From the IMG/VR virus record IMGVR_UViG_2721755721_000006: a stretch of DNA of 16,579 bases, one strand, 5' to 3'. Below are positions 4,347 through 12,520 of the stretch, in pieces; position 1 is the first letter of the stretch, and each line of letters starts with the position of its first letter. The notes under the pieces were generated by a model. The model was given only the letters and a program-made list of their open reading frames with translations. It did not search any database and was not told where the DNA came from. Made by a program: the position numbers and the translations under genes. The stretch is from a virus (taxonomy: Duplodnaviria > Heunggongvirae > Uroviricota > Caudoviricetes).

Positions 4347-5471
4347 TCAGGCTGCTTGACTATTCTTACTGATGTTATTCTTATACCGTCCCTGCAAAAC
4401 TCCATACACATATTGTGCGATTTTTGCCGCAAATAGCGGTGGAACAGCATTCCCGATCTGCTTTGCAATCTCAGTTTTTGAACCGGTAAAAATGAAATTA
4501 TCAGGAAAAGACATTAATCTCGCTGCCTCACGATGAGTTATTGGCCGATCCTCTTCCGGATGTAAATATCGCCCTTTCTCCGGTTTGAAAAACTCAGTAC
4601 GAATCGTTACTGAAGGTCTGTCCCACCACAGACGTCCAAACAAATCGGTCCCTCCAGATTTCTTTTTTAGCCAGCACGCCGGGGTTATATCAGGTCTTTT
4701 TTTCTGTAAATCGAAACGGTTACCTCCTGGTGGAACCGCTTTATATCGCTCCAGAGAAACAGGTGTGGGATTACGCCCAAAATGTAAGTTCAGCGGAGGA
4801 AGTTCATTACGAATATCAGTTCCAACAGGAGCAGGTAAGTCACCAATTGCATCACGCGTACAGACCCATTCAGGCAAAGCGACATCCTTATCAGGGGAAC
4901 GATGCGTTGGTGCTGGCGGGAACGCCGGAATACTATGCACATCGAAGAGTTCTCGTTTGATACCGATTGCTATCGTTCGTTTTCTTGTCTGAGGTACTCC
5001 ATAGTCAGCAGTATTCAACACCATTGGATTAAGCAGAATAAAGCCCATGGATTTCGCTCTAAACGTAATGTCCGCAAACTCATCGCTTATCAGCAATCCG
5101 GGGACATTTTCCATGACGAACATACAAGCCCTTGAACGCTCAATGACATCCATATAAGGCTCCCACAATGCTCTTCGGTGATCACCATAACGATTCTTAT
5201 TCAATAAACTGAATCCCTGACACGGGGGGCCACCTATGACCACATCAGCCTCAGGAACAGTATTGCTGGATGCCCACTCCTCAATATTTGCCTGAACTCC
5301 ATGCAAACCAAAATTGGCATTGTAGGTATTTATAGCTGCAGCATTATTATCAATAGCAAGGATACTTTCAAAGTAGTCAGACATCTCTCCATGAAGAAAA
5401 CCATAAGATAATCCACCTGCCCCACAAAAGAGGTCTATCACTCTGAATTTATTTAATTCTTTCATCCGCAT
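4347..5471 (-). CDS. DNA (cytosine-5)-methyltransferase (374 aa)
   Basis: Canonical m5C methyltransferase motifs in order: FCGAGG (I), GGPPCQGFS (IV, catalytic Cys), ENV (VI), QTRKR (VIII), GNAVPP (X). There is no N-terminal HTH extension. Confidence 0.93.
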   Translation of the reverse strand: MRMKELNKFRVIDLFCGAGGLSYGFLHGEMSDYFESILAIDNNAAAINTYNANFGLHGVQANIEEWASSNTVPEADVVIGGPPCQGFSLLNKNRYGDHRRALWEPYMDVIERSRACMFVMENVPGLLISDEFADITFRAKSMGFILLNPMVLNTADYGVPQTRKRTIAIGIKRELFDVHSIPAFPPAPTHRSPDKDVALPEWVCTRDAIGDLPAPVGTDIRNELPPLNLHFGRNPTPVSLERYKAVPPGGNRFDLQKKRPDITPACWLKKKSGGTDLFGRLWWDRPSVTIRTEFFKPEKGRYLHPEEDRPITHREAARLMSFPDNFIFTGSKTEIAKQIGNAVPPLFAAKIAQYVYGVLQGRYKNNISKNSQAA

Positions 5472-5554
5472 CCATATGCCTCAGATTAATGTTGAGCGTC
5501 TTACAGGACGCGTAATGTTAACTGGGGCTTTCTCTATCTGCCTTTTGGTGTTCA

Positions 5555-5579
5555 TGCCTGAGGCAGACAGCCTCAGGCA
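5555..5579. repeat. Perfect 9-bp inverted repeat (TGCCTGAGG-N7-CCTCAGGCA) between queH-like and the methyltransferase gene
   Basis: Stem 5555-5563 pairs with 5571-5579 around the loop CAGACAG. No U-tract follows on either strand, so it is not a canonical terminator. It sits about 85-100 bp upstream of the M start. Confidence 0.4.
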
Positions 5580-5649
5580 CCCGCAGCAATTCTACTTAAC
5601 TCACGTCACCTCGCCAATATGAAATCAATCAGAAAGGTGATCCATAAAA

Positions 5650-10317: not shown

Positions 10318-10794
10318 ATGCTTAGTGGTAAAGACTTAGGCCGAGCGATAGAGCAGGCCATTAACAAAAAAATTGCATCAGGAGCCGTCAAATCAAAGGC
10401 GGAAATCGCACGTCATTTCAAAGTCCAACCACCATCAATCCATGACTGGATTAAGAAAGGTTCGATAAGTAAAGACAAACTTCCAGAACTATGGCGTTTC
10501 TTTTCTGATGTGGTTGGTCCAGAGCATTGGGGGCTTAACGAATACCCCATACCAACCCCATCCACTTCAGATACAAAAAGTGAACTTTTAGACATAAACA
10601 GCCTTTATCAAGCCGCCTCTGATGAAAAAAGAGCAATTGTGGCTTTCCTCTTATCTGGAAATGCTACGGAGCCTAGTTGGGTTGATCATGACGTTCGCGC
10701 CTACATTGCCGCAATGGAAATGAAGGTAGCTAACTATCTGAAAAATCAAGAATCAAAACGGAAAAGCCAGAACATCACCAAGACAGGAACTTAA
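10318..10794 (+). CDS. Prophage repressor, RacR-like (158 aa, HTH, no recognisable LexA-type autocleavage domain)
   Basis: Divergent from the Cro-like gene. TAGGAGA lies 10 nt before the ATG at 10318. HTH segment KSKAEIARHFKVQPPSIHDWIKKGS. Flanked on both sides by the same operator dyads. Confidence 0.72.
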   Translation: MLSGKDLGRAIEQAINKKIASGAVKSKAEIARHFKVQPPSIHDWIKKGSISKDKLPELWRFFSDVVGPEHWGLNEYPIPTPSTSDTKSELLDINSLYQAASDEKRAIVAFLLSGNATEPSWVDHDVRAYIAAMEMKVANYLKNQESKRKSQNITKTGT

Positions 10795-10887: not shown

Positions 10888-10931
10888 ATTAGGCATAGCC
10901 TATTGACAAGTAATTAGGCATTTCCTATAGT
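10888..10931 (+). promoter_or_regulatory. PL-like sigma70 promoter with overlapping operator dyads (OL analogue)
   Basis: TTGACA (10903-10908), a 17-nt spacer, then TATAGT (10926-10931). Operator dyads TAGGCATAGCCTA (10890-10902) and TAGGCATTTCCTA (10915-10927) have the same core as the OR sites. Confidence 0.6.
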
Positions 10932-11116
10932 TTTCCCATACCAACCCATCCCGTCCCACACAATACAGGGCAATACCTCGAGTTACCAGGCAGTGGTCAG
11001 GGGTTAAGTAGCCAGCCCGAGGCGTAAGAACATGACGGCAGGGTTCAACTTTAATAACTATGCAGCAGGTTTTTGTTCCGCTACCCCGGCGTTAAGGGGA
11101 AACAGAGGGTTTCTCA

Positions 11117-11473
11117 GTGGGCGAAGTCAAACATCAGAATGGAAGGCATCCCGGGATCGGCAAAGAAGCAGCAATGGCGCTTTATATTGACATCAGCGCC
11201 ATTGCAGGACAGGTAAGAGTTATCAGAGCGGTAACTAAGCGGTATGCGCCTTTACTTCAGAAAGTCTCTGGTGAGTGCACCGAAGATATTGTCAACGATT
11301 TCGTCATCGAACTGCGAGGACTCATCTTCAGTTACAAGGTGACCACAATTTTTGCAGATGGCTCCCGCGAAACTGTCAGAGCCCTGCGGCTTAAAGGATG
11401 TATCAAAGACTTCGCCACCACATTCTGGGCAAGAAAACTTGATTGTATTCATAACCAATTTCCTCTCGAGTAA
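11117..11473 (+). CDS. Hypothetical early-left ORF (118 aa); mutually exclusive with the minus-strand zinc-ribbon ORF
   Basis: First ORF downstream of the PL-like promoter and co-oriented with it. GTG start preceded by GAGGG at 7 nt. It is in exact codon phase with an antisense ORF, so one of the two is probably a mirror artefact. Confidence 0.3.
   Translation: MGEVKHQNGRHPGIGKEAAMALYIDISAIAGQVRVIRAVTKRYAPLLQKVSGECTEDIVNDFVIELRGLIFSYKVTTIFADGSRETVRALRLKGCIKDFATTFWARKLDCIHNQFPLE
11252..11452 (-). CDS. Small zinc-ribbon protein with an acidic C-terminal tail (66 aa); alternative to the plus-strand ORF
   Basis: ATG at 11450-11452 preceded by GAGAGGAAATTGGTT. Contains CPECGG…(20 aa)…CKNCGH followed by the tail EDESSQFDDEIVDNIF. 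Convergent with PL-like transcription. Confidence 0.35.
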   Translation of the reverse strand: MNTIKFSCPECGGEVFDTSFKPQGSDSFAGAICKNCGHLVTEDESSQFDDEIVDNIFGALTRDFLK

Positions 11474-11544
11474 CAGACCCCTCAGAGGATACCACCTCGC
11501 CTGACGTGGTTAAAAGCAGGCAACGCTAACCACAAGGAGCCGAC

Positions 11545-11763
11545 ATGCAGAAACGAGAACCCGTCATCATCGCGCCAGACTATACCGATGATGAACTTTA
11601 TGAGTGGATGCACCAGAAAATTAATGCAGCGCAGGATCTGAAATGGGCCAATGAAGCCAGGGCTAAGCAGGCTGAAAATCTGTCCGCTCTGGAGCAGGAT
11701 ATCACCAGGCTGGAAAAAGCAGCGGCATTAAGCATTGCCAGAATGATTACATACCCGCGTTAA
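11545..11763 (+). CDS. Small hypothetical early-left protein (72 aa)
   Basis: Consensus Shine-Dalgarno AAGGAG 5 nt before the ATG. Co-oriented with the PL-like promoter. No antisense competitor ORF. Confidence 0.55.
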   Translation: MQKREPVIIAPDYTDDELYEWMHQKINAAQDLKWANEARAKQAENLSALEQDITRLEKAAALSIARMITYPR

Positions 11764-12331
11764 TAGCTAACCAACGAAGCTAAGGTTGGTAATTAAGGAG
11801 TTCTCCACGGGTGAGGTGGAGTGCGTGCGCCGGACACGGGTGAGCATCCGGCACTGACAGTTTACTGAAAGGATATTTCCCTGAAAAGTCAGACCATAAC
11901 GCGAAAGCGCACGGCGAGGTAGCTGGTTCATAGATAGCCTGTCGTTAAATTTTCGTCGACCGTGCGCTTCCGGTTGTGGCAATCCGCGAAATGGCGCGGC
12001 GGTAAGTATGGCGGGGTTATTCCTTCCCCCGTTGAGGACACCGGGTTGTCAGGTTGACCATACGCTTAAGTGACAACCCCGCTGCAACGCCCTCTGTTAT
12101 CAATTTTCTGGTGACGTTTGGCGGTATCAGTTTTACTCCGTGACTGCTCTGCCGCCCTTTTTAAAGTGAATTTTGTGATGCGGTGAATGCGGCTGAGCGC
12201 ACGCGGAACAGTTAAAACCAAAAACAGTGTTATGGGTGGATTCTCTGTATCCGGCGTTAATTGTTAACTGGTTAACGTCACCTGGAGGCACCAGGCACTG
12301 CATCACAAAATTCATTGTTGAGGACGCGATA

Positions 12332-12520
12332 ATGGAAACGTTATTACCAAACGTTAATACGTCTGAAGGTTGTTTTGATATTGGTGTTCTGCTCAGTAAC
12401 CGGGAGTTTACTGAAGATGCCATTAATATGAGGAAATATGAGCCTTATCTGCTCAATGATAATTCCATACTTTCCCGAATTGCTCTTCTTGAACTTGGTA
12501 TTTTCGGAGAACGTCAATGA
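12332..12520 (+). CDS. Small hypothetical protein (62 aa), first gene of a translationally coupled pair
   Basis: ATG at 12332 with AGGA 7 nt upstream. Its stop overlaps the next start in an ATGA at 12517-12520. The six-frame ORF begins further upstream at a GTG at 12227 that has no Shine-Dalgarno. Confidence 0.5.
   Translation: METLLPNVNTSEGCFDIGVLLSNREFTEDAINMRKYEPYLLNDNSILSRIALLELGIFGERQ

Follow-up and report, generated by a model that had tools for sequence, protein, structure and literature searches.

What does a lambdoid early operon encode in about 570 bp that hold no sizeable open reading frame? We addressed this question at positions 11764-12331 of a 16,579-nt stretch of DNA from the IMG/VR record IMGVR_UViG_2721755721_000006 (Caudoviricetes), hereafter the window, to which all coordinates refer unless another locus is named. 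The original prediction, made from the letters and their ORFs, had described positions 11764-12331 as free of ORFs and rich in hairpins, and had proposed either a structured non-coding RNA (an sRNA or an RNA element controlling downstream genes) or a decayed gene, with an Rfam scan, a covariation analysis and a tBLASTn search as ways to decide. The ORF listing agrees with the first part of this description: 0 plus-strand ORFs of at least 60 codons lie inside 11764-12331, and the sole one touching it (12227-12520, +, GTG start) is the dicB frame upstream of its ATG at 12332. All the inverted repeats quoted are present as well, with coordinates accurate to within 0-2 nt. The repeat search recovered the two strongest, namely the 10-bp repeat AAGCGCACGG (11905-11914) against CCGTGCGCTT (11960-11969) with its 45-nt loop, which lengthens to 13 nt (arms 11902-11914 and 11960-11972), and the 9-bp stem formed by GGGTTGTCA (12043-12051) and TGACAACCC (12071-12079). 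The AGCGCACG core does occur again at 12196-12203. For three others the repeat is real and its position had to be moved: GCCGGA/TCCGGC to 11829-11852, CCGCG-AAATGG-CGCGG to 11984-11999, and GGCGG…CCGCC followed by CTTTTT to 12120-12162.

Folded as RNA, the whole 569 nt reached -215.4 kcal/mol versus -186.2 ± 6.1 kcal/mol in dinucleotide shuffles (z -4.83), and 0/100 shuffles folded as well. The excess of structure is uneven along the stretch: it is found in 11884-11982 (z -3.1), in the DicF segment described below (z -2.0) and in 12170-12312 (z -5.0), with 11764-11883 and 11976-12100 (z -0.5 each) near shuffle level. We refer to the parts of the stretch as modules A, B, C and E. Module A (11764-11883, + strand) is the ydfC-proximal spacer, which holds small hairpins such as the GCCGGA/TCCGGC repeat at 11829-11852 and has no structure above chance (z -0.53).

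The Rfam scan gave a name to the RNA. The DicF model (RF00039) matched 12106-12157 on the + strand over its full length (positions 1-52 of 52) with 76.7 bits against a gathering score of 48 (E-value 9e-16), placing the 53-nt DicF sRNA, 100% identical to K-12 dicF, at 12106-12158 (+). The structured non-coding RNA of the original prediction was right in kind; its sRNA option was also right, but by the Rfam match and the identity to K-12 this sRNA is an already known one. DicF, which acts in trans with Hfq to inhibit ftsZ and other mRNAs, has been known since about 1990. Its first 14 nt are unpaired and form a single-stranded 5' seed, and its 3' hairpin (-15.9 kcal/mol) is followed by UUUUU. From the Rfam match and the K-12 alignment it follows that the GGCGG…CCGCC repeat with its CTTTTT is the intrinsic terminator of DicF (a GGCGGUA…UGCCGCC stem plus U-run at 12120-12162, +, z -2.0). 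The pairing of DicF with the ftsZ, xylR and pykA mRNAs is experimental in K-12 (PMC5069750), and by its 100% identity to K-12 DicF the window copy should be able to pair with the same mRNAs.

The spacer as a whole is ~98% identical to the ydfC–dicB region of the K-12 Qin prophage (569 vs 567 nt), and in this alignment the identity is complete over DicF and almost everything 3' of it. The layout of ydfC (11545-11763), DicF (12106-12158) and dicB (12332-12520) has the spacing seen in K-12. Upstream of the gap, ydfC (+) is 97% identical to K-12 YdfC by tblastn and is annotated by PGAP in near-identical genomes; downstream of it, the cell-division inhibitor gene dicB (+) has 67% identity to K-12 DicB over residues 1-55 by tblastn and likewise carries a PGAP annotation. 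A megablast search with a 1.1-kb query found a match in 4747/5426 complete E. coli genomes, at up to 10 places per genome, and the best matches (99.3%) are annotated ydfC, dicB and DUF1482. Scanning contigs (596 Gb) with a 17-base DicF pattern, which is too short, returned mostly chance matches, with ~10 loci truly homologous to the spacer. The gene order ydfC–dicF–dicB–DUF1482 (ydfD)–exonuclease is that of the K-12 Qin dicBF operon, with which the window also shares identical DicF, terminator and flanking hairpins. The two differ in that the window lacks ydfA and ydfB upstream of ydfC and has another repressor (158 aa), in the divergent C-terminal half of DicB, and on the exonuclease side, which looks intact in the window (823-aa ORF) whereas K-12 has the ydfE pseudogene. 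We hold with high confidence that 11764-12331 separates ydfC from dicB in the early-left dicBF operon of a lambdoid, Qin-like E. coli prophage, and that it codes for RNA and not for protein. This core finding is already known, as the dicF locus annotated in K-12 and in Rfam.

The early-left (PL-type) placement of the stretch, also part of the original prediction, proved correct, because there are a repressor gene (10318-10794) and a consensus promoter (10903-10931), and every gene downstream is on the + strand. This promoter (TTGACA-17-TATAGT, +, 11/12 matches in a consensus scan) is located downstream of the repressor gene as the equivalent of dicBp, and is the likely source, from outside the stretch, of the transcript. 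The consensus scan found no sigma-70-like site on the plus strand inside 11764-12331, and no internal promoter was found in the K-12 dicBF operon (Ragunathan 2023, PMC10448788). Between the PL-type promoter and ydfC we observed a 68-aa ORF with a CxxC…CxxC pattern in antisense orientation (11252-11458, -), which relatives annotate as 'ECs_2282 family putative zinc-binding protein' and which takes the place of K-12 ydfA and ydfB. With ydfA and ydfB missing and this zinc-binding ORF on the minus strand in their place, the promoter may differ from that of K-12 in strength and regulation. A lambda-type nut site was considered and rejected: boxA (YGCTCTTWA, ≤1 mismatch) does not occur on the plus strand in 10900-12332, and no N-like ORF was seen. 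Elsewhere in the same prophage, the Rfam sok antitoxin model (RF01794) matched 5402-5582 (-) with 61 bits against a gathering score of 59, suggesting a hok/sok-type toxin-antitoxin locus.

In K-12, dicBF is transcribed from dicBp into 1,146-nt transcripts that stop at DicF and 1,608-nt transcripts that read through to ydfD, and the 190-nt DicF species is RNase III-dependent and the 53-nt species RNase E-dependent (PMC10448788); an Hfq-enriched interval lies upstream of dicF (PMC4152368). In the window, module B (11884-11982) is predicted to fold into a long imperfect hairpin at 11894-11979 (+; ~24 pairs with bulges, -37.4 kcal/mol, z -3.09, 1/200 shuffles as good), whose core is the 10-bp repeat. 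Measured back from the DicF 3' end (12158-12162), 190 nt reach to 11969-11973, in the 3' arm of this hairpin. We infer that RNase III acts on module B and so makes the 190-nt DicF precursor start near 11969-11973, a cut placed by transcript length only (the published coordinate is 'between positions 813 and 814'). A Rac-type relative (L252) keeps the module B stem with an A-U to G-C double change (AAGCGCA/TGCGCTT to AGGCGCA/TGCGCCT). Module C is followed by a linker with a conserved CAAC motif (12080-12105, +), at the end of which RNase E would cut between AA and UUU (12105/12106) to make the DicF 5' end; the position is taken from the K-12 dicF annotation and the identity of both sequences, and the bases around it fit the RNase E consensus.

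On this basis, the stretch would be part of a polycistronic RNA that initiates at the promoter near 10903-10931 under repressor control. RNase III would cut the hairpin at 11894-11979 to yield a ~190-nt precursor (module C plus DicF), and RNase E would cut at 12105/12106 to yield the 53-nt DicF (12106-12158), which with Hfq would pair with the ftsZ, xylR, pykA and manX mRNAs, and division would be blocked. The DicF stem-loop and U-run (12120-12162) would serve as an intrinsic terminator ending part of the transcripts, and read-through RNA would pass the structured leader at 12170-12312 into dicB, which would be translated from it. Both cleavages, the transcript sizes and the targets come from published K-12 work and would carry over unchanged to this near-identical copy, which itself contributes identity, synteny, the Rfam match, and predicted structures and conservation. 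As a separate observation, CGTGCGCT (11961-11968), in the 3' arm of module B, is perfectly complementary to AGCGCACG (12196-12203) in module E. The two sites sit just outside both ends of the 190-nt precursor, which may reflect a long-range alternative pairing or coincidence; a processing stalk around pre-DicF formed by this pairing was considered and dropped, since phages that have no module B still show an invariant 12196-12203 block.

Module E, the leader between the DicF terminator and dicB (12170-12312, +), is the most structured part of the stretch when segments are compared by z-score (z -5.02, 0/200 shuffles as good). Inside its closing stem of 16 bp (12170-12185 with 12297-12312) are several hairpins, among them GGCGUUAA…UUAACGUC and CCUGG-AGGCA-CCAGG. 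The module recurs in Rac-type and Stx1 phages, in P7/D6 and in a Klebsiella phage, and 7 divergent copies share 32 consensus pairs, of which 8 show double compensatory changes. The genes that follow these 7 copies are dicB, kil (three), tciA/terB in P7 and D6, and an ORF in the Klebsiella phage. We also observed two loci (L211, 1120-1400, and L176, 4732-4920) in which module E is followed not by dicB but by a P1 immI-like module that has matches to isrK and C4 antisense RNA and an antirepressor-like ORF.

Module E resembles STnc100 (Rfam RF02076), a prophage sRNA related to PasD whose canonical copies are late-region elements located downstream of Q or stx (PMC12370729; bioRxiv 10.64898/2026.05.13.724894). 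The window copy scored 35.7 bits and five other copies 32.9-43.0 bits, all below the gathering score of 47, and we therefore call module E STnc100-like and not a member of this family. The window copy aligns to the full 206-position model, and other copies to the whole or most of it; the closing helix and the CACC(U/G)GGAGGCACC(A/C)GGCAC hairpin are common to both, and the AGGCA hairpin coincides with the Rfam consensus. One inner hairpin of the model is unformed in module E, and the locations differ: module E belongs to the early-left operon, where dicB, kil or tciA follows it, whereas STnc100 is in the late region, its canonical STnc100/PasD copies being 75 nt downstream of stx2 or near Q/LpxR. 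The literature gives no established function for canonical STnc100 and PasD of Stx-type phages, and the papers searched ascribe none to modules C and E.

Module C (11984-12079, +), the 5' part of the 190-nt precursor, is a conserved domain of three hairpins with helices P1 (11984-11999), P2 (12012-12031) and P3 (12043-12079). An alignment of 47 distinct copies favours the three hairpins, and pair counts in it give 95% paired cells. P2 stays a hairpin across five or more distinct stem sequences, a double change from UA to CG is seen for P3 in 6 sequences, and the loops and joining segments are nearly invariant. Diversity among the copies is low, and the single-sequence fold has a z-score of -0.5. 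RNAalifold replaced P3 by a J1/2–loop helix and an outer helix, P3 being missing from its output because RNAalifold draws no pseudoknots; we retained P3 on account of its 9 bp and the covariation within it. In the J1/2–loop helix, GGU..GUAUGG (12001-12011) is predicted to pair with the P3 loop CCAUACGCU (12058-12066), which together with P3 would make a pseudoknot. Its pairs include UA to CG in 2 sequences and 4 U·G intermediates, and the duplex energy (-8.6 kcal/mol) was equalled by 244/1000 loop shuffles; as this energy is unremarkable, the support for the pseudoknot is conservation and one UA to CG double change only. We regard the hairpins of module C as well supported and the pseudoknot as suggested. 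The covariation analysis across homologous loci, by pair counts in the alignments, thus found compensatory changes in modules C and E.

Copies of module C occur apart from DicF in phages cdtI, Ayreon and 2H10 and in Stx2c phages (88-90% identity), in Salmonella F1055 (~84%), and in P1/P7-type phages and 611 plasmids (~77-82%). In the cdtI-type, Stx2c and F1055 loci it lies downstream of a repressor gene and PL promoter. In P1/P7-type phages and the 611 plasmids it is located ~40 nt past the Pban promoters, which C1 controls, and in P1/P7 a long operon follows; the phage P1 record names part of it 'dicF-like region'. This ban-operon leader of P1/P7 has the whole of module C (helices P1, P2 and P3 and the joining sequences), then a linker and an intrinsic terminator. 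It differs in having no DicF seed and another terminator (GCCCAUCUUCGGGUGGGC plus U-run), in its place directly after the C1-controlled promoter and not inside the operon, and in what follows, which is tRNAs, tciABC and ban, not dicB. Faubladier and Bouché in 1994 and Łobocka in 2004 may have treated the 'dicF-like' homology of phage P1 and Rac already, and in more detail. Pas sRNAs were considered as relatives of module C and rejected, PasA/C/D being located in the late region.

Downstream of module C, a linker bearing the conserved CAAC and, after it, a hairpin with a T-run occur in 65/65 distinct contexts. Between CAAC and the terminator lies a single-stranded seed that exists in at least 8 versions (DicF, several with …CCAUGUU…, a Rac type and a cdtI type), one example of an alternative-seed cassette being …CAACAACCCAUGUUGAUUACC…, and none of the alternative seed types tested reached the DicF gathering score (RF00039). 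Over the region homologous to window 12080-12162, the loci L229, L235, L128, L176, L211, L241, L125 and L252 have the DicF seed swapped for at least 7 other sequences, several with CCAUGUU, with the terminator and both flanks retained. Judged by sequence, these seed-swapped loci resemble DicF-like sRNAs, not yet annotated, that would have other targets. L252 (Rac-type) and L125 (Shigella 75/02) keep the seed, the terminator and the leader after it but have no complete module C. Two side observations concern this region: the alternative-seed cassette is in tandem duplicate in L250 (~2640-2780; seed, terminator and AAAGTGAATTTTGTGA flank twice), and in cdtI (L124, 2675-2770) and F1055 (L248, 2705-2800) a long inverted repeat (ACAAAACAGAGAAGAGCA … GTTCTTCTCTGTTTTGT) lies between the module C terminator and the first early-left ORF, close to the latter, and may be another processing or regulatory hairpin.

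Comparing ~130 related loci, with relatives drawn from a distant blastn search against phages and a pattern scan of IMG/VR (120 loci), we found that RNA modules make up the spacer in mosaic fashion. The breakpoints in homology are concentrated at window positions 11884, 11973/11984 and 12081/12096, and within module A they fall at 11784, 11806, 11824 and 11884. The loci L135, L176 and L080 are without ydfC and modules A and B, and the leader upstream of ydfC (11503-11527) joins module C; the junction falls on the repeat CGCGAAA (window 11901-11907 and 11985-11991), suggesting a deletion between short repeats. Two records with non-E. coli names, PP818812.1 ('Actinobacillus phage vB_Apl-pPE4', L250) and MT713136.1 ('Aeromonas phage AP1', 249906-250143, H40), hold E. 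coli Rac/Qin-like prophage DNA, AP1 being 99.2% identical over window 12095-12332; both are probably contaminated or chimeric assemblies, or have mis-assigned hosts.

Several other accounts of the stretch were weighed against this evidence. Module C could do more than form the discarded 5' part of pre-DicF, as a cis-acting RNA that governs the following terminator, whether through read-through into dicB or early genes like HK022 put or Bacillus EAR, through the sRNA:mRNA ratio, or by directing RNase E; we consider this unlikely. It would fit the conservation of the module without the DicF seed, after Pban in P1/P7 and after the PL promoter ahead of early-left genes in cdtI and F1055. It would also fit the distance to the terminator, as a hairpin plus T-run ends 47-83 nt after P3 in 65/65 distinct contexts compared with 7.75% of random 130-nt segments, but coupling this strict is equally expected if module C is the 5' domain of an sRNA gene family. 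The stems covary and hold G·U pairs, so the constraint acts on + strand RNA, and the near-invariance of loops and joining segments, as well as the lack of an N-like gene or boxA between promoter and terminator, point the same way; yet the single-sequence fold is no better than shuffles (z -0.5), and the pseudoknot rests on one double change with an unremarkable duplex energy. The Rac-type L252 and Shigella 75/02 L125 loci have the order seed, terminator, module E and kil without a complete module C, which is therefore not required for downstream gene expression. The processive antitermination RNAs put and EAR provide a functional analogy only: like module C they are structured RNAs just past an early promoter or before terminators in operons with no recognisable N-type protein, but sequence similarity is absent and the number of helices differs (two stem-loops and ~70 nt in HK022 put, three hairpins and ~100 nt in module C), and some relatives without module C keep the downstream genes. 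A blastn-short comparison of module C with the HK022 nun–cI–cro region found only chance matches of 7-13 nt.

That the stretch instead encodes a small minus-strand protein at 11767-11931 (or to 11982), the 54-aa hypothetical WP_001331716.1, strikes us as very improbable. PGAP calls this protein in some near-identical genomes, and the ORF is intact in 17/19 (54 aa) or 21/25 (71 aa) sequence variants, but stop-interrupted and -29-nt forms also exist, no Pfam or PHROGs family matches it, and it is antisense to the transcribed operon and overlaps the RNase III hairpin. Substitutions by codon position (8/24/20) have no third-position excess, in a test of low power since the ydfC control is also noisy, and the ratio of synonymous to non-synonymous changes is 17:35.

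The decayed-gene option of the original prediction, the remnant of a degraded protein gene such as a sieB/kil-type early-left gene, is unsupported and already largely refuted, and we give it next to no chance: for a phage operon the gap is uncommonly long, hypothetical ORFs are annotated across it in several phage records, and phrog_8854 and phrog_24763 (families of unassigned function) match translations of modules C and E, but these two families correspond to ORF calls placed over conserved non-coding DNA; the proposed tBLASTn search, run with 21 neighbour proteins from relatives, Kil, YdaE, RacC, YdfA and YdfB among them, matched nothing in the gap except opposite-strand ORF calls over module C, YdfC and DicB being recovered at the expected places; Pfam has no match in any of the 10 stop-to-stop frames of the six-frame translation; ORFs are broken in close relatives, with the minus-strand ORF 12133-12423 broken or indel-altered in 27/44 variants (23 stop codons, 4 with a 9-nt insertion) and the module C frame (11962-12057) shifted by ±1-nt indels in most; and the covariation and G·U pairs point to constraint at the RNA level.

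The preferred reading, a ydfC–dicB spacer that codes for DicF, adds nothing new at its core; the flanking modules and the seed-swapped cassettes are a modest lead. Identifying DicF leaves the DicF-independent conservation of modules C and E unexplained: across phage types these flanking modules are conserved, and the DicF seed is replaced in several relatives. We tentatively propose, as one possibility, that the spacer is one case of a modular RNA cassette in the early operons of many enterobacterial temperate phages, with modules C and E acting as cis-regulatory elements. Such a cassette may combine module C (possibly pseudoknotted), an exchangeable seed of at least 8 types, a conserved intrinsic terminator and the STnc100-like module E, the last of which may be placed before toxic or division-inhibiting genes (dicB, kil, tciA/terB, ant). 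If this is true, modules C and E would set the share of transcripts that end as sRNA versus those that read through and are translated into a toxic protein. The comparison could explain how prophages balance a division-blocking sRNA against the toxic protein encoded downstream, and it suggests that pathogenic E. coli carry 'DicF-like' sRNAs with alternative seeds that Rfam misses.
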